From positions 1 through 46,949 of the forward strand of contig JBLIRK010000024.1 in NCBI GenBank assembly GCA_048569615.1: 46,949 nt of DNA, in the 5' to 3' direction. The notes under the pieces were generated by a model. It had not been told where the DNA came from and searched no databases. It saw only the letters and a program-made list of their open reading frames with translations. The first letter of the stretch is position 1. Every line of letters starts with the position of its first letter. The stretch comes from Thermoplasmatota archaeon (GTDB lineage Archaea; Thermoplasmatota; Penumbrarchaeia; Penumbrarchaeales; Penumbrarchaeaceae). The position numbers and the translations under genes were made by a program. This document shows, piece by piece, positions 31,001 to 39,220 of this stretch.

Positions 31001-32575
31001 ACCGATAAGACCTTCTTCAAGATGGAGGCAACCCTGAACAACACCATCAGGATTAAGAACTACTATACCCCGGAGGTCACCCTTTCGGGAGCGAGCGAAG
31101 GGGATACCATAAGCGGCGAGCTGACCCTGAAGGCTGTGATCTGGGACAGGGACCGCAATTACATCGAAAAAGGTATTATTTTCGAATACTCTCTCTCCGG
31201 AGAGGAGAACTGGACATCGCTCGGCAGGGGCTTGCTCATCGGCACCCAGGCAGAGTTCAGCTGGATCACTACCACAGTCCTCAACGGTGTCTATGATGTC
31301 AGGGTCCGGGTCACGGACGAGGACAATCTCACCGCAGTATCCAGGATCAACGGGATAACAGTGAGGAACCCGTACCATCCGAAGATATATCCCCGGCTCC
31401 CCTCCGGCGGACAGACCGTATCGGCGACCCTGAGATTGAGGTTCAACGTTTCCGATGACGGCCCGATACCACCTGGGAACGTCAAGATAGAGGTCTTCGC
31501 CTATGACCAATGGCGGGAGCTGACGGGACTTACAAGGGAGACTGCGGGAGGGTCCTTCGTACCTTGGTCCAACATATCCTTCTACGTTGACTGGGACACC
31601 ACCCAGAAAGGAGAGGACGGAAAACCATTATTCCCGGATTCCATCGGCTACGAGGTAAGGATAACCGTAACGGACGAGGAGGGTCTCAAGACCGTTTACG
31701 AATCTCCGTTCTCCTACACGGTCAAGAACAAGGATGACAGCCCGGATGACGACGATGGCGGGGGTGAGGCGCTGTTCCTTCCGGGGTGGGCCATAGCGGC
31801 GATACTGCTGGGAGCGATAATCCTGGTCGTGTGCATATTCCTTTTCTTCATATTCTGGAGCGGGAGGAAGAAGGAGAAGGATGCTGTCCATGTCAAGGTC
31901 AAGGACATAACCGCAAGGCCCAAGCCCAGGATCCATGAGGAGACGAAGATCGTCACCCCCATGGACGAGAAGGTGGAAGATGTTTACAAACCCCCGGGCT
32001 GGAAGGCGCCGCCCGCCGAAACGAGGCCTTCCGAGGCGCCGATGTTCGCGGTTGGTGCGGAGACGCCAGATCTCGGACTCGACCTTGGTCTCGGCATGGC
32101 GGAGGAGGAGGAAGAGGAGCTTGTTGACGTAAGGGATTCTCTCTTCGGCGAGAAACCGAAGAGGAAGCCTCCGGCGAAGAAGAAGGAGCCCTCTGCTGTC
32201 CCGTACGTCGAAGAGTCCATCGATGTGGAGCTTCCGGAAGGAGTGATGCCCACGGGGCCACCTGTATCAAGGGAGAAAGCGGAGAGCTGGGACGAGGTGG
32301 AGATCGAGGAGGAGGAGGAGGAAGAATGGGGTGGTGCTGAAGCCTGGGAAGAGGAAGAGGAGGAAGAATTCGAGGAGCTTGAGGAGGAGGATTGGGGAGA
32401 GATGGAAGATGAAGAGGAGGAGGGTTGGGAAGACCTCGAAGAAGAGGAGGAAGAGGAGGATTACTTCGTAGTGACCTGCAAGTGCGGGGAGGAGATCGAG
32501 ATCCCAGGCGATTTCAAGGGAAGCAAGTTCCTGTGTCCCACATGCGGCAGAAAGAGCCGTATCCCGGGCAGATAA
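28091..32575 (+). CDS. Giant surface adhesin-like protein: FG-GAP/VCBS repeats, multiple Ig-like or fibronectin-like domains, one TM helix, then a cytoplasmic poly-E tail ending in a zinc ribbon
   Basis: The ORF is 1494 aa with a signal peptide. The FG-GAP motifs are GDFNRDGFQDMVV, WDYSGDGWLDLAVGCPGADNGSGRVLIF and DADDDGSMDLVVSSPNDGKISIF. Repeated roughly 100-aa beta-domains follow. The TM helix is WAIAAILLGAIILVVCIFLFFIFW. An EEEEEEEWGG...EEEEDYF tail follows. The C-terminus is CKCGEEIEIPGDFKGSKFLCPTCGRK. Confidence 0.85.
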   Translation: MNLASCKCTIRVLAVVFLLLISGSFVFTDRGTTGLKYLKEQSAPGSRYPLVKDVVPIGDFNRDGFQDMVVTMPTDTSGGRDAGRLLYFKGSDEGFPAFSPGNADLIIRGEPDYLFGQSVAAWDYSGDGWLDLAVGCPGADNGSGRVLIFESTDINAASSGATLSCDRSALNVTSPDTYFFGSHLTVGRITEDELSDLMVLSMSNGILSPKAKLFSGGVIPEYGYEIALEDDSVANRTATACVDLFGEGREAFVYSSPDNGEIKVIQINVTFDTIMLPGANETGVVDFQGSIQSTANTFGWGAGDDGWDTSLTHIYDGSTGYDSVRYNQATGNARGDDRSVGTENQLFIEVGGVLGTSNGRDMSGAYGVSFTLTSNNVSGINSAVLSFDFEWENWGFEANERYWIKARLTDSTGDVHWLGQEFDRGAPTDPEPEIYSSLGRGNPGQNLAGIGKYSSDVLALIDGPGEYYFDVGGKISEWTNNQEFEGVGIDNVKFVLRTLTHDVREIRGGSQIGLALSKADADDDGSMDLVVSSPNDGKISIFRGGEPYWWNLASINQGMANYTIEGSAGNGFGAALLNAPPNPFVPGSSLLISETLVTRTGSGIGAVHLFELPLNGSLMPLAWAKETNWAPIDVHDFGWDMVNSGDNDENGYPELIIFGWNQTNNLFALLADRSPSPPQLWIDNPRRHDTVSGHVEIRARVFDPDGDAGPEDIRFFRSIDNRSWNTIGNGRPDRIEGDTAIKDWYTNLDENSGYFFKVEVEDDFGLSVVKYTDRVDVLNHEPPIVDLIYPADGTELRAGEDITARIIISSDEELEPPVRFLYSRNNLTWYEYANRTKAVEGSDIDYIARLNTETMKDGPIWFKINATTVYGLGSEDRNIGPCHINNYYPPDAAITFPAPNATLTGMVNITANVSDPDDDIREPVEFNVKTPDVELFDFVGNMTRGANGTYYYLWDTTTLENGRYDIMVRVTDKTFFKMEATLNNTIRIKNYYTPEVTLSGASEGDTISGELTLKAVIWDRDRNYIEKGIIFEYSLSGEENWTSLGRGLLIGTQAEFSWITTTVLNGVYDVRVRVTDEDNLTAVSRINGITVRNPYHPKIYPRLPSGGQTVSATLRLRFNVSDDGPIPPGNVKIEVFAYDQWRELTGLTRETAGGSFVPWSNISFYVDWDTTQKGEDGKPLFPDSIGYEVRITVTDEEGLKTVYESPFSYTVKNKDDSPDDDDGGGEALFLPGWAIAAILLGAIILVVCIFLFFIFWSGRKKEKDAVHVKVKDITARPKPRIHEETKIVTPMDEKVEDVYKPPGWKAPPAETRPSEAPMFAVGAETPDLGLDLGLGMAEEEEEELVDVRDSLFGEKPKRKPPAKKKEPSAVPYVEESIDVELPEGVMPTGPPVSREKAESWDEVEIEEEEEEEWGGAEAWEEEEEEEFEELEEEDWGEMEDEEEEGWEDLEEEEEEEDYFVVTCKCGEEIEIPGDFKGSKFLCPTCGRKSRIPGR
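32281..32470 (+). repeat. GAG/GAA-rich low-complexity tract encoding a poly-Glu tail punctuated by Trp
   Basis: It is made of gaggaggaggaagaa-type repeats. The protein reads EIEEEEEEEWGGAEAWEEEEEEEFEELEEEDWGEMEDEEEEGWEDLEEEEEEEDYF. Confidence 0.5.
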
Positions 32576-32717
32576 GAAAAACAGACGCCGCATTCTGGCA
32601 GTTGCGGGCCCTACATGCATGATATTATTGTCAAACGGCTGTTCCAATGTTTGTTTTAATACTCCTTTCCATGGAAACCTCATGGAAGCGGCAGGGACCG
32701 CTAAGAGGTGTGTAACC

Positions 32718-33641
32718 ATGAAGAAAGGAAAAAGGAAAGGGCCCATGGTCGAGGTGCCGGCGGGAGCTGTCTATGCTCTCCTCGCCGCCATAAGCATCAT
32801 ATGCGTTACCATTCTGGCAGTTGCACTGGCCGATGACGACGGCACTACGAGGAAGATAAGGGAAGAACCCGAGGTGATCAAGACACCGCACCTCTTCATC
32901 GAGGAGGTGTTCTTCCGCTCGGACAACACGGACAGGATAACGGTGGAAGTGTACATCTACATCACAAACGACGGAACCAAGGAAGCGAACGGTGTGAATG
33001 TCCACGTATGGCCCGTTGTGGGAGAATCGAACATCGCCACCGACATGCAGGAGATGGACTTCGGCGTCATCGGGATCAATGAAACGGGGATGAAAATGGT
33101 CTCCATCGAGCTGAAGGCCGGCGAGACGCTATCGGTGGAGCTTCTGGTCTTCGAATCCAATATGATGATACTCAAGGGAAGGGCGGAGGTGTCGACATCC
33201 GGTCAGGGAGGAGCCGATTACAGGAATACGGACGTGAGAGGGACCGACGGAGACGGCGATTACGACGGAATGCCCGACGATTGGGAGCGCTACTACGGGC
33301 TGGACCCCAACGATCCCAACGATGCCGATTACGACAGGGACGGCGACGGGATCACCAATATCATGGAATACAGGCTCAACAGGGACCCGACCGTCTCCCC
33401 AACCTCGGATGACAACATTGCGGATGATGATGATGACGAGACGGTAGGATGGGGAGCGGCATCTGACAAAGATGGCACAACCGTCATTTTCGGGGCTGGT
33501 ATGTTCCTCCTCCTGATCATCGGTGTTATCATCGTCCTGATAATAGCCGCCGCAAGGGCCAGCAGGAAGAAGTACAGCAAAGATCCTCAGACGGAAGAGG
33601 GCAAATGGCCGCCAAAGGAAGGACGGGACCATCGGGATTAA
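32718..33641 (+). CDS. Membrane-anchored protein with an N-terminal signal anchor, an unknown beta-rich domain, bacterial-type TSP3 calcium-binding repeats, an acidic stretch and a C-terminal TM anchor
   Basis: The N-terminus is MKKGKRKGPMVEVPAGAVYALLAAISIICVTILAVALA. The TSP3-like repeats are DGDGDYDGMPDDWERYYGLDPNDPNDADYDRDGDGITNIMEYRLNRDP. These are followed by DDDDDE, the TM helix IFGAGMFLLLIIGVIIVLIIAAA and a basic tail. A GAGGTG ribosome-binding site precedes the start. Confidence 0.6.
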   Translation: MKKGKRKGPMVEVPAGAVYALLAAISIICVTILAVALADDDGTTRKIREEPEVIKTPHLFIEEVFFRSDNTDRITVEVYIYITNDGTKEANGVNVHVWPVVGESNIATDMQEMDFGVIGINETGMKMVSIELKAGETLSVELLVFESNMMILKGRAEVSTSGQGGADYRNTDVRGTDGDGDYDGMPDDWERYYGLDPNDPNDADYDRDGDGITNIMEYRLNRDPTVSPTSDDNIADDDDDETVGWGAASDKDGTTVIFGAGMFLLLIIGVIIVLIIAAARASRKKYSKDPQTEEGKWPPKEGRDHRD

Positions 33642-33672
33642 ATGTCAAAGAGGCCATGAAAGGAGAGAGGAG

Positions 33673-34752
33673 ATGGACATGAAGGACGAGGGGACAGGGA
33701 GCAGAAAAGCGCTGGCAGCAGCCTCTTCAGCGCTTGCTCTCTGCCTCCTCGTTAGCATCTTGTTTTCTATGTATGTCGAGGGACAGGAGGAGGCGGACAC
33801 CGACGGGGACGGGCTCCCGGACGACTGGGAGGTCCAGTACGGCTTCAACGAGACCGATCCCTCGGATGCCTCGGGGGACCCGGACTCGGACGCTCTGACA
33901 AATCTGGAAGAGTACAACATCGGGACGAACCCGAAGCTCAACGATACCGACTCCGACGGCATGGACGACGGGTGGGAGGTCCGTTTCGGGCTCGACCCCA
34001 AGGACCCTTCGGATGCAACAGGGGACATGGACCGCGACGGTCTCCCGAACCGGAGGGAATACGACATAGGAACGGACCCGACGGACTACTACGACCCCGG
34101 GAGCGAGCCGAGCGATGATGACGATGATATCTCACCGGATGATGATGCGGATGATGGGGCGGGAATGGGAAAAGATGCTGGCAATTTGGCTTGCGGCATC
34201 CTCTTCTTCATCATCGGCGTCGTCATAGTCATAGGAATAATTATCGGAATATATTCCAAGATACGCCGCGACAGGATCCTGGACCATGAGACAAGGCAGA
34301 GGATCGTGGACTATCTCCGCGAGAATCCGGGAGCCTACTACTCCCAGATAAGGAAGGACCTGGACCTCGCCCACGGCGTGCTCACTCATCACATCAACAT
34401 ACTGGAGCAGCAGGAGCTCCTGTTCTCCAGGCAGGACCGCTCATACAGGAGGTTCTTCCTCGACGGGATGTACAGGAAGGGTCCGATAGTCACGGGAAAC
34501 CAGAAGAAGGTGCTTGATGCTATAAGGAGGCATCCCGGCCTGTCCCAGTCGGAGATAGGGAGGAAGCTCGGCATGGGCAGGATGATAGTCAGTTACCACA
34601 TCAACGCCCTGGAGGACCTCGGTCTTGTGGAGAAATCGAAGAGAGGAAGGGAGAACCTCGTCTATCCTTTGAACGGTGAAGGTGAGGACAGAGGGATGAA
34701 GGAGGACATTTTTACGGAAAGCGCCCGTCCCCCGGCGGAGGTCGAGGCATGA
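33673..34752 (+). CDS. Single-pass transmembrane transcription-factor-like protein with extracellular TSP3 calcium-binding repeats, one TM helix and two cytoplasmic winged-helix (ArsR/MarR-like) domains
   Basis: After the signal peptide come three repeats: DTDGDGLPDDWEVQYGFNETDPSDASGDPDSDALTNLEEYNIGTNP, DTDSDGMDDGWEVRFGLDPKDPSDATGDMDRDGLPNRREYDIGTDP. The TM helix is ILFFIIGVVIVIGIIIGIY. The wHTH-like segments are RQRIVDYLRENPGAYYSQIRKDLDLAHGVLTHHINILEQQELLFS and QKKVLDAIRRHPGLSQSEIGRKLGMGRMIVSYHINALEDLGLVEK. An AAAGGAGAGAGGAG ribosome-binding site precedes the start. Confidence 0.7.
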   Translation: MDMKDEGTGSRKALAAASSALALCLLVSILFSMYVEGQEEADTDGDGLPDDWEVQYGFNETDPSDASGDPDSDALTNLEEYNIGTNPKLNDTDSDGMDDGWEVRFGLDPKDPSDATGDMDRDGLPNRREYDIGTDPTDYYDPGSEPSDDDDDISPDDDADDGAGMGKDAGNLACGILFFIIGVVIVIGIIIGIYSKIRRDRILDHETRQRIVDYLRENPGAYYSQIRKDLDLAHGVLTHHINILEQQELLFSRQDRSYRRFFLDGMYRKGPIVTGNQKKVLDAIRRHPGLSQSEIGRKLGMGRMIVSYHINALEDLGLVEKSKRGRENLVYPLNGEGEDRGMKEDIFTESARPPAEVEA

Positions 34753-34805
34753 TGGCGGGTACTGATGTATTATTTTACATATCTTGAGAACTTTAACCAT
34801 TGAAC

Positions 34806-36038
34806 ATGGAGGCTGTCCTCTACCTTCTCCTCCTGCTGATCTCTGCCATCTTCTTCGGCAAGGTCGCGGAGAAATTCGGGCATCCGACCATCGTCGGCAA
34901 TATCATCGGCGGCCTTCTCGCCGGTCCTGTTCTCATTCTGATAATGGAGCTGTTCAATTACGGTTTCGAGCTGAGGCAGATCTCGGAGATGATAGATTTC
35001 CTTGAACCCGAAACGGTGGAGAGGGAGGTCTTCTTCATAGTGGACCTTGCGGTGATCATGCTTATGTTCGCCTCCGGATTCGAGACAAGGATAAGGGACT
35101 TCATCGCCTCCTTCAGGACCGGCATACTGACCGCTGCCCTGGGGATCATCCTCCCGTTCTCCCTCGGATTCGTCGGGACCTATCTGTACCTCGGAGACAT
35201 GCTGGTGGCTTTCTATGTCGGGGCTGCATTGTCCATCACGGCCGTTGCCCTTTCCATTGCTACCCTGATACAGATCGAGGCCATCCGGACCAGGTTCGGC
35301 ATGACGATAATAAACGCTGCCATTGTCGATGATATAATCGGGATCATAATCCTCTCAGTACTCCTTTCCTTCTCCACTACCGGGAGGCTCCCCAGTGCCG
35401 CATCGGTGATCTGGGTGGTGGTACTGTCTGTCATCTTCGTGGCCGTATCGCTCTTCATAGTGCCAAGGCTCCTGAAGAAGGTCTACCACAACCTGAGGGA
35501 CCTGAGGACCACCGAGAAGGTTGGCCTTGGAATACTCATGGCTGGACTTTTTGCGGTCGTCGCCCATGTAATGGGGCTGCATCTGATGATTGGTGCCTTC
35601 ATGGGCGGAATGGCAATAAGGGACTCCCTTTCCAGGTCCACGATGCAGTCCCTCTCCAGATGGTCCTTCGGCTTCTTTGCTCCAGTTTTCTTTGCATGGG
35701 TCGGATTCTCCGTTACGCTCTCCGGTCTGGTGTTCTCCCCCTTCCTGCTGCTGCTCATCGTACTTGGGTTCACGGGCAAGGTGCTGGGAGCGGGTGCTGG
35801 AGCGAAGCTCTCGGGATTGACATGGGCCGAATCCCTGCTTGTCGGGGTGGGCATGAACGGCAAGGCGGCCGTCGAGCTGGTCCTGGCATCTGTTGCCCTG
35901 CAGGCAGGTATCATAGAGAGGGACCTCTTCTCTGCGGTGGTCATCTTCGCAGCTCTCATGGCAATAACGACACCGATGATGCTGAAATCGCTCACGAATA
36001 ATTTCCAAAAGAAGGGATGGATAGAGGATATGTACTGA
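34806..36038 (+). CDS. CPA2-family monovalent cation/proton antiporter (Kef/NapA-like, no KTN domain), copy 1
   Basis: The N-terminus MEAVLYLLLLLISAIFFGKVAEKFGHPTIVGNIIGGLLAGPV is the CPA2 signature. There are 12-13 TM helices. The ATG at 34806 is preferred over the TTG at 34800. Confidence 0.8.
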   Translation: MEAVLYLLLLLISAIFFGKVAEKFGHPTIVGNIIGGLLAGPVLILIMELFNYGFELRQISEMIDFLEPETVEREVFFIVDLAVIMLMFASGFETRIRDFIASFRTGILTAALGIILPFSLGFVGTYLYLGDMLVAFYVGAALSITAVALSIATLIQIEAIRTRFGMTIINAAIVDDIIGIIILSVLLSFSTTGRLPSAASVIWVVVLSVIFVAVSLFIVPRLLKKVYHNLRDLRTTEKVGLGILMAGLFAVVAHVMGLHLMIGAFMGGMAIRDSLSRSTMQSLSRWSFGFFAPVFFAWVGFSVTLSGLVFSPFLLLLIVLGFTGKVLGAGAGAKLSGLTWAESLLVGVGMNGKAAVELVLASVALQAGIIERDLFSAVVIFAALMAITTPMMLKSLTNNFQKKGWIEDMY

Positions 36039-36093
36039 AAATATATCCAAACAGCGTAACTTTTATACGGGAGTTGTTTTTTTGGGGCCTCTT

Positions 36094-37329
36094 ATGTTCG
36101 ACTTTCTCTACCTTCTGCTGCTTCTCATTGCGGCGCTCTTCTTCGGGAAGGTAGCGGAGAGGTTCGGGCTCCCCACCATTGTCGGCAACATCTTCGGCGG
36201 ACTTGTCTTCGGTCCGGTCCTGATACAATCGATGATCGGTCTGGACCTCATCTTCGATGTAACCCTCCTTCAACCGACCATCGATGAATTGAACCCCGAC
36301 AAGGTGGAGGATGCGACCGCGTTTCTGATGGAGTTCGCCATCGTCATGCTCATGTTCGCATCCGGTCTGGAGACCAGGATCAAGGACTTCCTTGCATCCT
36401 TCAAGACTGGCATACTAACGGCATCCCTTGGCGTCGTCTTCCCCTTCGGCCTTGGCTTTCTCGGGGCATACCTCTATCTCGGCGACGTGATAATAGCATT
36501 GTATGTGGGCGGTGCGCTCTCTATCACCGCAGTGGCGCTTTCCATCTCCACCTTGATCCAGATAGAGGCCATCCGGACCAGGTTCGGTATGACGATCGTC
36601 AACGCCGCCATAGTGGATGATATCATAGGCATTGTGATACTTTCCATACTTCTGTCGATATCGGCTTCCGGACACCTTCCCGACGCCATTACGCTGGGGG
36701 GCACCCTGGTGATGGCCGTTCTGTTCGTGATTTTCTGCATCTTCATCCTGCCGTGGATCATGAAGAAGGTGTACAGACAGCTCCGCGACATCAGGACAAC
36801 GGAAGGAATAGGTTTCACCATACTGATGATCGGGCTCATCGCAGTCATGGCCCATTTCATGGGGCTCCACCTGATGATCGGGGCGTTCCTGGGAGGAATG
36901 GCTATAAGGGAGGGATTGAACAAGAGGACCCAGCAGGCTCTCGGTAGATGGTCCTTCGGCTTCTTCGCCCCAATATTCTTCGCATGGGTGGGCTTCTCGG
37001 TGACCTTCTCCGGTGTCGCTTTTTCATGGCTTCTGCCATTACTGGTGGTCCTGGGGCTGACCGGAAAGGTCCTTGGCGCCGGCCTCGGAGCGAAGATCTC
37101 CGGTCTCAACTGGGCGGAATCTCTGCTTGTGGGAGTTGGAATGAACGGCAGGGCGGCCGTGGACCTCATACTTGCATCGGTTGCACTCCAGTCCGGGATA
37201 ATAGAGAGGGACCTATACTCAGCCGTTGTCTTCAATGCGGTGATCATGGCGCTGATAACCCCGATACTGCTCAATAAGCTGTCCAACAGATTCAGGGACA
37301 AAGGCTGGATCGACCAGGATTATTTCTGA
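36094..37329 (+). CDS. CPA2-family monovalent cation/proton antiporter, copy 2 (tandem paralog)
   Basis: MFDFLYLLLLLIAALFFGKVAERFGLPTIVGNIFGG... is about 70% identical to copy 1 over the full length. The DNA blocks gaggccatccggaccaggttcgg are near-identical. The ATG is at 36094. Confidence 0.8.
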   Translation: MFDFLYLLLLLIAALFFGKVAERFGLPTIVGNIFGGLVFGPVLIQSMIGLDLIFDVTLLQPTIDELNPDKVEDATAFLMEFAIVMLMFASGLETRIKDFLASFKTGILTASLGVVFPFGLGFLGAYLYLGDVIIALYVGGALSITAVALSISTLIQIEAIRTRFGMTIVNAAIVDDIIGIVILSILLSISASGHLPDAITLGGTLVMAVLFVIFCIFILPWIMKKVYRQLRDIRTTEGIGFTILMIGLIAVMAHFMGLHLMIGAFLGGMAIREGLNKRTQQALGRWSFGFFAPIFFAWVGFSVTFSGVAFSWLLPLLVVLGLTGKVLGAGLGAKISGLNWAESLLVGVGMNGRAAVDLILASVALQSGIIERDLYSAVVFNAVIMALITPILLNKLSNRFRDKGWIDQDYF

Positions 37330-37330
37330 A

Positions 37331-37378
37331 AAAAAATAAAAAAAAGGTGAGAAAGAACGATTATTTTTCTTCCTCACC
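37331..37378. terminator. Convergent, possibly bidirectional terminator hairpin flanked by A/T runs
   Basis: aaaaaaaataaaaaaaa is followed by ggtgagaaagaa, a 9-nt loop and ttcttcctcacc, a 12-bp stem with one mismatch. It lies between the plus-strand gene ending at 37329 and the minus-strand gene ending at 37361. The right arm lies within the last codons of the minus-strand gene. Confidence 0.5.
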
Positions 37379-37855
37379 CGCGTATGACTTTTCGGACTTC
37401 TTCAGTCTGACCTCTTTCATGACCTCGGCTATCTCGTTGGGCGATAAGCGCAGCCTTCTCTCCTTGATGCCGGTCTTGATGAGGACCTTCCAGACCTTGA
37501 AGGTCTTCAGTTTCTGGTACGGGACCTCGAGATTGTAGATCTTCCCAACTTTCTCGCCGTCCTTGTCGAAGACGGGGAGCTTCTTGAGCTCGTCCATCGG
37601 ATATCTGTTCCTCATCGGAGTCTTCGGGACCTCGGGCGTCTCATGATCGTCGGTGACCACCATGAGCTTGTCTTCCTCGTCCATCTTGATGATCTGGGAG
37701 ACGTCGAGAAGGTAATGCTTCTTCATCATACCGGGAGATATCTCGAAGGCGGCAACCGTCCAGGTGTCGAGATCTATGTAGGCCTCCTTCACCTTTCCGA
37801 GCTCCTCTCCCACGGAGTTCACTATCTTGTATTCCTCAAGTATCTTCGCTAGCAT
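37361..37855 (-). CDS. PRC-barrel domain protein, with two tandem PRC-barrel-like halves
   Basis: KIVNSVGEELGKVKEAYIDLDTWTVAAFEI and VFDKDGEKVGKIYNLEVPY are typical PRC-barrel patterns. The ORF is 164 aa with a GTGAGGTG ribosome-binding site. Confidence 0.65.
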   Translation of the reverse strand: MLAKILEEYKIVNSVGEELGKVKEAYIDLDTWTVAAFEISPGMMKKHYLLDVSQIIKMDEEDKLMVVTDDHETPEVPKTPMRNRYPMDELKKLPVFDKDGEKVGKIYNLEVPYQKLKTFKVWKVLIKTGIKERRLRLSPNEIAEVMKEVRLKKSEKSYAGEEEK

Positions 37856-37864
37856 CCTTTCACC

Positions 37865-38215
37865 TCACTTCTTCGGCTTGGCAGCCTTCTTGACCTCTTC
37901 AAGGTCCCTCTCCAAAGCCGAGATCCTTGCCTCGGCAGAGAGCTGGTATTCCTTCATCCCGGCAATCCTTCCCGTCAGCTTGCCGTACCTGATCTCGTAG
38001 GATTCCAGGTCAAGTCCCGTGACTATGCCGTACTCCTGGATGTAGGAGTCCATGTTCTGGTCAAGATACTTCTCGATCCTGCCGTCCAGGAGTTTTCTCT
38101 TGTATTTCGGCGCTTCGGGTTCCGCATCGGGGTCCTTCTTTCTGAAGACACCCTTGAGCCATGACATGAAACCCTTCTTCTGTTCCTGTTCTTCTTCTAT
38201 CATCGGGTCTTCCAT
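37865..38215 (-). CDS. Small acidic coiled-coil protein (116 aa), paralog of the 38559..38842 product
   Basis: MDSYIQEYGIVTGLDLESYEIRYGKLTGRIAGMKEYQLSAEARISALERDLEEV shares a spacing pattern with LMDEYKIADRNDIADIDGQFEGFEKRMDELESWRKNFDLKLDESDRRMARL. A GAGGAGGTGAT ribosome-binding site precedes the start. Confidence 0.5.
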   Translation of the reverse strand: MEDPMIEEEQEQKKGFMSWLKGVFRKKDPDAEPEAPKYKRKLLDGRIEKYLDQNMDSYIQEYGIVTGLDLESYEIRYGKLTGRIAGMKEYQLSAEARISALERDLEEVKKAAKPKK

Positions 38216-38228
38216 TCATATCACCTCC

Positions 38229-38555
38229 TCAAAGGCCCTCCATCCGGGTCATCTCGCGGTCCAGCGCTCCAAGCCTTCTGTCAAGCTTCGTGCGGTTCTT
38301 CTCGAGCAGATCGATGTCGCTCCCGACCAGGGACAGCCTTTTGTTGAGGTCCTTCTTGAAGTCCTTCACACGGTCCCTGGTTACCATGTCCCATTCGTCC
38401 ATGATCTTGCGGAAGTTCTCGTCGAAGTACAGCTGAACATGGGACGGTCTTCCCTTCCTTCTCCTGACAAGGAATACGATCAGGGAAATGACAAGGAGAA
38501 CTGCGATGACGAGTGCAGCTATGGCGACGATTATCCATATCGTTGTGGCATCCAT
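38229..38555 (-). CDS. Small protein with an N-terminal TM helix and a coiled coil (108 aa)
   Basis: The TM helix MDATTIWIIVAIAALVIAVLLVISLIVFLV is followed by RRRKGRP. The coiled-coil heptads are ...LSLVGSDIDLLEKNRTKLDRRLGALDREMTRMEGL. Confidence 0.55.
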   Translation of the reverse strand: MDATTIWIIVAIAALVIAVLLVISLIVFLVRRRKGRPSHVQLYFDENFRKIMDEWDMVTRDRVKDFKKDLNKRLSLVGSDIDLLEKNRTKLDRRLGALDREMTRMEGL

Positions 38556-38558
38556 CTA

Positions 38559-38842
38559 CTATTCACCTCCTTTCACGCCGTACTTCGTCCTCAGCCTCGC
38601 CATTCTCCTGTCGGATTCATCCAGCTTCAGATCGAAGTTCTTCCTCCAGCTCTCCAGCTCGTCCATCCTCTTCTCGAAACCTTCGAACTGCCCGTCTATG
38701 TCCGCTATGTCGTTCCTGTCGGCTATCTTGTATTCGTCCATCAGATCGGGGAGATTCTCGCTCAGGAACTGATCGAGCTTCTTGTTCATCGAAAAGGGAT
38801 GGGTTATGCCCATCGCTTGGACCCTGTTCATGAAGCTCATTT
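38559..38842 (-). CDS. Small coiled-coil protein (94 aa)
   Basis: The start is the ATG at 38842-38840 (MSFMNRVQAMG...) with an AAGGAGG ribosome-binding site. It overlaps the stop of the upstream gene as ATGA. The track's longer ORF (start 38909) begins inside the upstream gene. Confidence 0.5.
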
Positions 38843-39220
38843 CTTTTCCTCCTTTTCTTCTTCCTCTTCTGCATGCTTTCCGCCGAGTCTCTCCTTGAAC
38901 CTCTTCCATGAGGCTTTCATGTCATCCTTCAAGGAATGGTACGGATGGATCTCGACCTCATCTCCTTCCTTGACCTTGAGGTCCTCCATATCGCCCTCTC
39001 TCAGGACCACTACATTCTTCTTGGCCAGCCTGTCGGCGACCAGCTTCACGACCTTCTTCTTCTTTCCTGCCCGCAGCTCAACGAGGTCGATCTCTCCTTC
39101 CTCGATGTCTTTCAGGTAGCTCTCGTGGATCCTGGCTATACCGGAATCCATCGATCTTATGGCACTTTCCGCGACCTTCAAGGTCACAATGTGCTCTTCT
39201 TCTTTTTGTTCTTCTTTCAA
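38837..39220 (-). CDS. CDC48/VAT N-domain-like (double-psi beta-barrel) small protein with acidic termini
   Basis: IVTLKVAESAIRSMDSGIARIHESYLKDIEEGEIDLVEL...VVVLREGDMEDLKVKEGDEVEIHPY resembles the VAT-N pattern VAEA..RD.GRGIVRID...M..LG...GD.VEI. Confidence 0.5.
   Translation of the reverse strand: MKEEQKEEEHIVTLKVAESAIRSMDSGIARIHESYLKDIEEGEIDLVELRAGKKKKVVKLVADRLAKKNVVVLREGDMEDLKVKEGDEVEIHPYHSLKDDMKASWKRFKERLGGKHAEEEEEKEEKK

Follow-up and report, generated by a model that had tools for sequence, protein, structure and literature searches.

Two adjacent genes, here called A and B, lie on the forward strand of a 46,949-nt stretch of contig JBLIRK010000024.1 from a metagenome-assembled genome (this whole stretch is the window hereafter), whose host is a Thermoplasmatota archaeon related to the EX4484-6 lineage. 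We judge it somewhat better than an even bet that the two genes encode an autoregulated, membrane-tethered one-component regulator, B, together with its co-receptor, A. Within this model, the architecture and the conservation of the two proteins are near certain, the binding of B to a conserved promoter box has about an even chance or slightly better, and the sign of regulation and the input signal are guesses; the analysis shows the domain architecture, its conservation, the gene order, a specific promoter box and the covariation of that box with the recognition helix, whereas the topology, the contact of B with DNA and its effect on the promoter, the part played by A and the nature of the input are inferred. 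Outside the cell, B would expose four Ca2+-binding bacterial thrombospondin type-3 (TSP3) repeats on an acidic stalk, and its transmembrane (TM) helix would run into basic winged helices inside. The two winged helices of one B chain would bind the box halves TGTMAAA and GTTCCAAT, and B at the membrane would regulate the promoter of its own operon, a feedback on its own expression. Relatives also have the box in front of genes for paralogous regulators and of nearby genes for surface proteins, which may be further targets of the B family. The position of the box just upstream of the TFIIB recognition element (BRE) and TATA box suggests activation by B, and the input would probably be a cell-surface state, either the loading of the TSP3 repeats with divalent cations or contact with the FG-GAP protein encoded upstream of A or with the envelope. 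The coordinates of all features are collected in Table 1.

An earlier note on this DNA, made by a model from the sequence, had read B as a TSP3 ectodomain joined by a single TM helix to two winged helices of the ArsR/MarR type, and this is borne out by Pfam, hydrophobicity and an AlphaFold2 (AF2) model. The open reading frames of A, B and the two downstream antiporter genes, C and D, are all present where the note had placed them. As it had anticipated, TSP3_bac, HTH_20, HTH_24 and MarR are all matched in Pfam. B belongs to TSP3_bac (PF18884; E 2.4e-11, 43.7 bits against a cut-off of 25), its four repeats forming two double units. The first winged helix (residues 203-264) belongs to both HTH_HVO_0163_N (PF24266; E 1.2e-16, 60.9 bits against a cut-off of 31) and HTH_20 (E 5e-16, 58.8 bits against a cut-off of 27), and residues 273-330 match HTH_24, HTH_5, MarR, MarR_2 and DUF7343 at E-values from 1e-13 to 4e-8. 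In NCBIfam, B has domain-level matches alone, all under the family cut-offs; its score with HTH_metalloreg (NF033788), 50.8 bits against a cut-off of 55, does not make it a member of the ArsR/SmtB metalloregulators. Nor is B a member of the MarR family, as the Pfam MarR and MarR_2 matches cover the helix-turn-helix (HTH) core alone (profile positions 2-51 of 59).

A Kyte-Doolittle scan of B finds two hydrophobic segments, at residues 13-31 and 173-191. The intervening 141 residues include 46 D/E against 7 K/R, and the basic sequence YSKIRRDR follows directly C-terminal of the second segment; likewise, the isoelectric point of the tandem winged helix (residues 194-333) is 10.0 against 4.1 for the ectodomain. 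Because of this charge asymmetry and the positive-inside rule, the TSP3 repeats are predicted to lie outside and the winged helices inside the cell, the topology that had been proposed. The AF2 model of residues 188-359, built with a 40-sequence alignment, has a mean predicted local distance difference test (pLDDT) score of 84.2. It contains two canonical winged helices of the helix-helix-helix-strand-strand type, as expected in the note, the TM helix continues unbroken into helix 1 of the first, and no dimerisation helices flank the second.

We identified 39 full-length homologues of B, at 38-67% identity, with a common layout: a signal or anchor segment, three or four DxDxDG motifs, a TM segment, the motif Y[ST]K[IL][RK][RK].[RK]LL[DE]H and the tandem winged helix. 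All that have a taxonomic name are Thermoplasmatota. Since these homologues come from independent assemblies, the possibility raised in the note that B is an assembly-fusion artefact is ruled out. The form YSKI[RK][RK]D[RK]LL[DE]H follows the TM segment in 39 of the 39 homologues and also in variants with other or unassigned ectodomains, such as the vWA variant P0075, and many homologues have AxA-type signal-peptidase sites after the N-terminal segment. The mean pairwise identity is highest in the juxtamembrane region and first winged helix (66%), the best conserved region of B, followed by the TSP3 region (54%) and the second winged helix (51%), and falls to 19-30% in the signal, stalk, TM and tail. 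Residues G235, T238, H239, H240, N242, R259, R260, F261, Y308 and G325, which fall in the recognition helices and wings, are invariant, as are D42, D44, D46, G47, D50, E53, D69, D71, D73, N77 and E80 in the Ca-ligand region of the TSP3 repeats, where D91 and its neighbours are invariant or almost so. In two loci, the A and/or B frames are split into overlapping pieces (L028 6389-8459 and L029 7392-8448; compared loci carry L numbers here), which are either frameshifts (pseudogenes) or assembly errors.

The evidence for autoregulation comes from the promoters. An alignment of the DNA upstream of A gave a bipartite box with the consensus ATTGTMAAA-N5-GTTCCAAT, and in every aligned promoter one of the sequences TTTAATA, TTAAATA or TTTTATA stands 5 nt after it. 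Every examined locus has the box, ahead of A-B or of B on its own; it stands before B where A is missing (L001, L007, L011 and L023) and is duplicated in the divergent clade. It also occurs at paralogues with unrelated ectodomains (L008 4180, L009 449, L026 1232, L032 4184, L034 43 and L036 6392), in a weaker form at paralogue promoters in L040 and L042, and before neighbouring genes that encode other membrane or surface proteins (L036 7580, L036 9070, which is DUF7490-like, L030 5184 and L023 7896). The heptamer GTTCCAA occurs 110 times in 477 kb, and 30 of these copies are at most 160 nt from the start of a family gene. A 23-nt position weight matrix (PWM; 23.7 bits) has 38 matches of at least 14 bits, almost all at promoters of family genes. 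With a PWM built solely from orthologue promoters, 8 of the 14 testable promoters of paralogues score above the 95th percentile set by random 500-nt windows. When a metagenome collection was scanned with the DNA pattern only, both of the two matches fell between an FG-GAP gene and an A-B pair. The window itself contains one site, at 25.9 bits, which is the sole one of at least 14 bits, the next best reaching 11.0; the same PWM scan found no box in the B-C, C-D or FG-GAP upstream regions of the window.

The box varies together with the recognition helix. The first recognition helix GVLTHH[LI]N pairs with the box half GTTCCAAT, the subfamily with PGV[AT]SYHIN and SKVVINYH pairs with AGTAA[AG]-N6-CTTTCCA[AC]AC, and the altered-helix paralogues in L037 and L039 have the boxes GTGAAACAAT and GTGTACCAAC. 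Such covariation, in few independent events, is what self-recognition would predict. From the start of one half-box to the start of the other is 12 bp, a spacing at which the two winged helices of one chain might sit on successive major grooves. Archaeal sites just upstream of the BRE/TATA are typical of activators, and for this reason we tentatively favour positive autoregulation.

In L030 (5118-5945), a box-like element precedes the gene of a 253-aa membrane protein with an NPTTGYEW motif, directly upstream of a paralogous putative regulator. The motif is presumably a chagasin-type peptidase-inhibitor signature, and the protein may be a different kind of partner protein.

On the other hand, several points weigh against autoregulation by B. 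The box-helix covariation comes down to a few clade-level events, and the box could belong to another factor or could be a lineage-specific core-promoter element; the transcription start sites are predicted only. With a predicted template modelling score of 0.52 for the AF2 model, the relative orientation of the two winged helices is uncertain, and as the first of them starts about 10 residues past the membrane, DNA would have to approach the lipid surface very closely. The adjacency of antiporter genes of the CPA2 family to A-B, described below, is above what is casual, so that a functional link is still possible. Finally, the closest structural matches of the tandem arrangement, RPC34, TFIIIC, ESCRT-II and ScpB, are not sequence-specific repressors or activators.

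These structural matches, with RPC34/RPC6 among the best, also speak for a rival reading, in which B is not a transcription factor and either tethers nucleoid DNA to the membrane without specificity or binds proteins, underneath an adhesion complex of A and the FG-GAP protein. The ectodomains of the superfamily described below, which are adhesin-like or S-layer-like beta-sandwiches instead of sensor domains, would suit this role, as would the encoding of three membrane proteins in a row, FG-GAP, A and B, each with a cytoplasmic tail. However, the profiles matched by B, at E-values from 1e-13 to 1e-16, are those of DNA-binding ArsR/MarR families, its invariant residues are those of recognition helices and wings, and a specific conserved box at the family promoters co-varies with the recognition helix. 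We regard an adaptor role as unlikely but keep it as a rival.

We compared nine loci obtained by exact-protein look-ups and 37 from a scan of species-representative genomes, annotating them with purpose-built profiles for A, the cytoplasmic part of B, the B ectodomain, CPA2, FG-GAP and GatD; neighbours were counted in the 24 non-redundant loci with a TSP3-type B. A lies directly upstream of B in 17 of the 21 loci in which this stretch is visible. In 16 of 21 loci, an FG-GAP gene is found no more than 4 kb upstream of B, and in 14 of 22 a CPA2 gene no more than 3.5 kb downstream of it; 10 loci have two CPA2 copies. The gene order in closer relatives is GatD, FG-GAP, A, B, CPA2, CPA2. L016, L018 and L028 keep FG-GAP, A and B and have no CPA2; L007 and L023 have a second FG-GAP/Big_7-like protein in the place of A, and no CPA2; and the most divergent group (L008, L009, L026 and L027, with B about 40% identical) keeps the A-B pair alone, with neither FG-GAP nor CPA2. 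The unit that is conserved is A-B, no other partner of B being conserved as deeply as A; CPA2 is often nearby but can be dispensed with.

In L008, L009 and L026, the A-B pair adjoins large paralogous genes with the ectodomain, TM and tandem winged-helix plan. One or two of these (about 700-1,300 aa) stand directly before A-B (L008 43-6422, L009 548-2689 and L026 1279-5187), with the same TM and tandem winged-helix ending and, in those of about 700 aa, with PKD domains (Pfam). Each of those with visible upstream DNA has its own copy of the box, giving tandem arrays of membrane-tethered putative regulators.

Since the 31-bp junction between A and B leaves no room for a promoter, the two genes are likely one operon. 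In most loci with an adjacent A, the junction is 0-45 bp or an overlap with the same purine-rich Shine-Dalgarno sequence, longer gaps being found only in L026 and L027; short or overlapping junctions of this kind make a single operon very probable.

Protein A was described in the note as a TSP3 module with an additional beta-rich domain and a short basic tail, and these parts are present; however, it has two TM helices rather than just a C-terminal anchor. Its hydrophobic segments are at residues 20-38 and 260-278, and 9 of the 29 residues of its tail are K/R. The sandwich domain matches Pfam DUF7490 (PF24318) at E 5e-5 and 23.3 bits, under the cut-off of 27, while most full-length homologues of A carry PF24318 in precomputed annotation. 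The TSP3 unit of A has no match in Pfam and was found by the NCBIfam MtsD model (E 2.4e-7) and by a profile of the ectodomain of B (E 5e-12); its Ca-site residues D179, D181, D183, G184, D187, W189, D206, D208, D210 and G211 are invariant. The AF2 model of A (pLDDT 78) has an N-terminal TM helix, which is strikingly conserved among homologues, a beta-sandwich at residues 59-173, short TSP3 helices and a second TM helix. Structure comparison places the sandwich near FlaF, the CARDB domain of PF1109 and glycosidase Ig-like domains, and the modelled fold is a generic CARDB/Ig-like sandwich. A type IV pilin-like reading was rejected: the top Foldseek match is the archaeal pilin 8fk7_A, but with a root-mean-square deviation of 11 A, and no [KR][GA] motif for class III signal-peptide cleavage is present in the N-terminus (…GxRxEVPAGAVY…). 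A is likely a co-receptor or modulator of B; the co-receptor role already suggested for it is plausible, given its place directly upstream of B across a short or overlapping junction. The tail of A in the window (33552-33641) is 29 aa long against about 60 aa in most homologues, and lacks the conserved F[ED]HxVxEG motif and the acidic end of their tails, which is either natural variation or a truncation.

The upstream gene indeed encodes the 1494-aa FG-GAP adhesin that had been recognised there, with Pfam FG-GAP and Big_7 matches, a signal peptide, a TM segment at residues 1237-1255 and then a long cytoplasmic tail; it is a possible surface partner of A and B. This tail (residues 1256-1494, about 240 aa) has long poly-Glu runs and a CKCG...CPTCG zinc ribbon at its end. 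The most divergent homologues of A (P0159-P0162) also end in a cytoplasmic zinc ribbon, C.RCGGWV...C..CG, and given zinc ribbons on both, the FG-GAP protein and A may have a cytoplasmic partner in common.

Downstream of B, the note had described tandem CPA2 antiporter genes of roughly 70% identity; the tandem arrangement stands, and the identity is 67%. C and D match Pfam Na_H_Exchanger (PF00999) at E 9e-45 and 2e-51 (153.5 and 175.7 bits), and score 118 and 127 bits against the CPA2 model TIGR00932, whose cut-off is 238. The best solved relative of C is the CPA2 Na+/H+ antiporter NapA of Thermus thermophilus (E 5.5e-34, nearly full length), and no KTN/RCK domain is present. At the same place as the TATA-like element of C, TTTACATAT or CTTACATAT is found in L001, L005, L013 and L014, and AACTTTTATACGGGAGTTGTT before D is conserved in the window, L001, L003, L011, L014, L015, L020 and L021. 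As these conserved TATA boxes lie 25-27 nt before ATG 34806 and ATG 36094, we doubt the mechanically called TTG starts of Table 1, and the two ATG codons are probably the true starts; this suggests leaderless or near-leaderless CPA2 mRNAs.

The note had further proposed that B senses extracellular Ca2+ or ions through its TSP3 repeats and controls these two genes. The CPA2 genes counted above often lie on the same strand as B and just 20-70 bp from it, the TSP3 Ca-ligand residues are invariant, and an MgtE gene nearby in several relatives adds a flavour of ion homeostasis. However, no CPA2 gene stands beside B in L007, L009, L016, L018, L023, L026, L027 and L028, most of which keep A-B, and in L005 the CPA2 copies are separated by five unrelated genes. 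Before each CPA2 gene stands a conserved TATA-like promoter of its own, about 25-35 nt ahead of a plausible ATG, in surroundings that relatives also conserve and without the family box; we considered a CPA2 regulon and rejected it, since the B-C and C-D intergenic alignments (8 to 12 loci) conserve the TATA-like elements alone and no box or palindrome. Moreover, TSP3 repeats are usually structural Ca sites, and the same cytoplasmic module occurs under CarboxypepD_reg, CARDB, PKD, SdrD-B and vWA ectodomains, which are not ligand-sensor domains; the presence of such ectodomains on sister proteins weakens the idea of a Ca2+ sensor. We thus consider Ca2+-dependent control of C and D quite improbable. 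The neighbouring antiporters are attractive as targets, but this assignment, drawn from adjacency only, is unsupported and is corrected here.

In the window, both CPA2 genes are followed by a minus-strand cluster of five genes (37361-39220), one for a PRC-barrel protein and four for small proteins that are mostly unassigned. In L005 (10427-12276), the same cluster lies between the two CPA2 copies, which shows local rearrangement within a conserved neighbourhood.

The weakest of the alternatives, to which we give little credence, resembles anti-sigma and regulated intramembrane proteolysis systems: B would be an inactive membrane precursor, and a signal at the ectodomain would lead to a cleavage that frees the soluble tandem winged helix to act on DNA. 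The very short distance from the TM to the first winged helix, which makes DNA binding at the membrane sterically awkward, the reported cleavage of ArnR and ArnR1 (PMC12107092) and the short database proteins with a TM and tandem winged helix, or the tandem winged helix alone, all favour it, but no Pfam protease family was found among the called genes of nine A-B loci examined, the juxtamembrane motif is conserved inside helix 1 of the first winged helix and not as a linker, and many of the short entries stand on contigs of about 1 kb and are maybe truncated.

We searched the cytoplasmic 149 residues of B exhaustively against 1.84 billion cluster representatives with HMMER, which gave 6,730 matches at E <= 1e-3 and 2,242 at E <= 1e-10; the TM and tandem winged-helix module accounts for more than 2,000 clusters at 50% identity. 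In 130 of the 143 top new representatives, the last hydrophobic segment lies 130-200 aa from the C-terminus, and therefore a TM segment directly precedes the tandem winged helix; these 130 proteins range in length from about 170 to 1,640 aa. All of the 89 representatives scanned against Pfam contain HTH_HVO_0163_N and HTH_24, and their ectodomains include CarboxypepD_reg (20), CARDB (9), SpaA (9), SdrD_B (9) and NPCBM_assoc (4); versions with PKD and vWA ectodomains were also found. The sampled named members, and all 37 loci from species-representative genomes, belong to Thermoplasmata/Thermoplasmatota. Individual metagenome-assembled genomes carry several copies, and homologues of A and B share contigs. 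Judged by these matches, A-B appears to belong to a very large unstudied family of TM-tethered tandem winged helices, whose database label is 'winged helix-turn-helix transcriptional regulator' and nothing further. The statement in the note that no characterised archaeal regulator is known with this architecture agrees with the literature we searched, but the rarity that it implied was overstated, given more than 2,000 clusters.

That literature contains no description of the architecture of B, nor of DUF7490, DUF7343 or PF24266; HVO_0163, after which Pfam HTH_HVO_0163_N is named, has one mention, as an ArsR-type Haloferax protein. The membrane-bound one-component activators ArnR and ArnR1 act on the archaellum promoter of Sulfolobus acidocaldarius and have an N-terminal HTH, a HAMP-like region and two C-terminal TM helices (PMC12107092). 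ArnR-type factors bind boxes upstream of a promoter (PMC12107092; PMC6396743 as cited there). B is likewise archaeal and membrane-anchored, with a winged-helix output and a box, which it may bind, upstream of its promoter. However, in contrast to the published description of ArnR, which has no sizeable ectodomain, B has an N-terminal ectodomain, one TM and a C-terminal tandem winged helix, and by this comparison of architecture it is not of the ArnR type (PMC12107092). No sequence relationship between the two emerged, and no search aimed at one was made. ArnR and ArnR1 are the only characterised membrane-bound archaeal transcription factors in the literature searched; A-B is a variant of membrane-bound one-component regulators and represents a large unstudied family.

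In bacteria, ToxR, TcpP and CadC are single-pass proteins that couple an extracytoplasmic domain to a cytoplasmic winged helix, often with a co-transcribed membrane partner (ToxS, TcpH). B is analogous to ToxR/TcpP/CadC, and A to ToxS and TcpH, but they are not homologous: ToxR-like proteins are N-in with one N-terminal winged helix of the OmpR type, whereas B is predicted to be N-out, with a signal sequence and two C-terminal winged helices of the ArsR/MarR type. With its domain order reversed and its winged helices of another type, B falls outside the ToxR-like class. Taken singly, the winged helices of B match the folds of SmtB, CzrA, MexR and SlyA, and the first matches 5duk_A (PDB 5DUK, a 77-aa 'putative DNA binding protein') at E 1e-7. 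However, soluble ArsR/SmtB and MarR proteins are homodimers that have dimerisation helices and, in many cases, sites for a metal or ligand, whereas B has two different winged helices per chain and a membrane anchor, and no dimerisation helices in the model. For the tandem arrangement, the best whole-model Foldseek matches are RPC34/RPC6, ScpB and ESCRT-II (query-normalised TM-score 0.57 for 9fso_F); these are only 12-16% identical to B, belong to polymerase, condensin and membrane-remodelling complexes, and are not membrane-anchored. The DxDxDG...W-E...D-P repeat is common to A, B and the Myxococcus proteins MtsD and CglD, which match as partial NCBIfam hits (MtsD at E 2e-11 for B and 2e-7 for A); the likeness is confined to the repeat, with scores far under the equivalog cut-offs of 800 and 400 bits, and MtsD and CglD have no DNA-binding domain.

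Between the TATA box and A lies a leader with a nested inverted repeat, which we compared in the window, L003, L005, L006, L011, L013, L014, L015, L016, L018, L021 and L028 by per-sequence folds and a manual block alignment. In the window, CATGG pairs with CCATG at the start codon and ACCTC with GAGGT at the Shine-Dalgarno sequence, around an inner hairpin GCGG/CCGC. In relatives, the 5' arm is T-rich (CATGTTTTTCTCAC) and forms pairs with the start codon of A and its Shine-Dalgarno sequence, leaders with an AGGAGG-type Shine-Dalgarno sequence (L015 and L021) have a matching TTCC(T) arm, and the stem of the inner hairpin is lineage-specific, with compensatory changes. In RNAfold, 9 of 13 leaders reach z-scores between -3.1 and -5.6, with stems that hold G.U pairs; the leader in the window is weak (z -0.9), its homologous fold being iso-energetic with the minimum free energy structure at -18.0 kcal/mol. 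MAFFT with RNAalifold did not register the inner hairpin, and an Rfam search of 32500-37400 returned only sub-threshold chance matches. With a canonical spacing of about 23 nt from the TATA box, transcription would begin where the 5' arm ends, so that only read-through transcripts from the FG-GAP gene could form the pairing. The leader may thus gate the translation of such transcripts, its function at the RNA level being uncertain, and its T-run may be the oligo-T terminator of the FG-GAP gene.

Table 1. Features of the A-B locus and its neighbours, with nucleotide positions in the window.
Feature	Residues	Position	Strand	Remarks
FG-GAP/Big_7 surface protein, 1494 aa		28091..32575	+	conserved upstream neighbour
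Bipartite box ATTGTCAAA-CGGCT-GTTCCAAT		32627..32649	+	candidate operator of the tandem winged helix
Box 1, TGTCAAA		32629-32635	+	
Box 2, GTTCCAAT		32641-32648	+	
TATA box of A-B, TTTTAATA		32654..32661	+	5 nt past box 2; function from consensus only
Leader of A, nested inverted repeat		32662..32720	+	
Gene A		32718..33641	+	307 aa, two-pass membrane protein
A, TM1	15-39	32760-32834	+	
A, DUF7490/CARDB-like beta-sandwich	57-173	32886-33236	+	
A, two TSP3 repeats	176-226	33243-33395	+	acidic linker after
A, TM2	256-287	33483-33578	+	29-aa basic tail after
A-B junction, 31 bp		33642..33672	+	Shine-Dalgarno-like GGAGAGAGGAG; no promoter room
Gene B		33673..34752	+	359 aa, type-I membrane-tethered putative regulator
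B, signal/anchor	13-31	33709-33765	+	
B, four TSP3 repeats	40-137	33790-34083	+	
B, acidic stalk	138-172	34084-34188	+	
B, TM	173-193	34189-34251	+	hydrophobic segment 173-191 in Kyte-Doolittle scan
B, juxtamembrane motif YSKIRRDRILDH and winged helix 1	194-264	34252-34464	+	
B, winged helix 2	273-333	34489-34671	+	acidic tail after
TATA-like element of first CPA2 gene, TTTACATA		34774..34781	+	about 25 nt before ATG 34806; no box
C, CPA2 (NapA-like) cation/proton antiporter		34800..36038	+	syntenic neighbour
TATA box of second CPA2 gene, TTTTATA		36061..36067	+	about 27 nt before ATG 36094; no box
D, CPA2 (NapA-like) antiporter		36082..37329	+	syntenic neighbour

Transmembrane signal transduction in archaea is poorly understood, and A-B is a compact and well-conserved representative of its family. 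Our analysis defines a candidate operator (32627-32649), a soluble putative DNA-binding fragment (residues 194-340 of B) and a partner, A. If the binding is confirmed, the pair would provide a simple model linking surface proteins and adhesion to gene expression in uncultured Thermoplasmatota, and the family would provide a natural set of co-varying protein and DNA specificity pairs. More broadly, and tentatively, since we hold this reading to be somewhat short of an even prospect, outside-in regulators may form a very large family in Thermoplasmatota, numbering thousands of clusters and present several times in a genome. In these proteins, an adhesin-like domain would be coupled through a TM helix to a tandem winged helix that reads a co-evolving box at its own promoter and at those of neighbouring surface genes; the TSP3 subfamily would have a dedicated two-pass co-receptor, A, and maybe an RNA leader that blocks read-through translation. 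If true, this would be an undescribed way in which archaea couple the state of the cell surface, or contact with it, to transcription.

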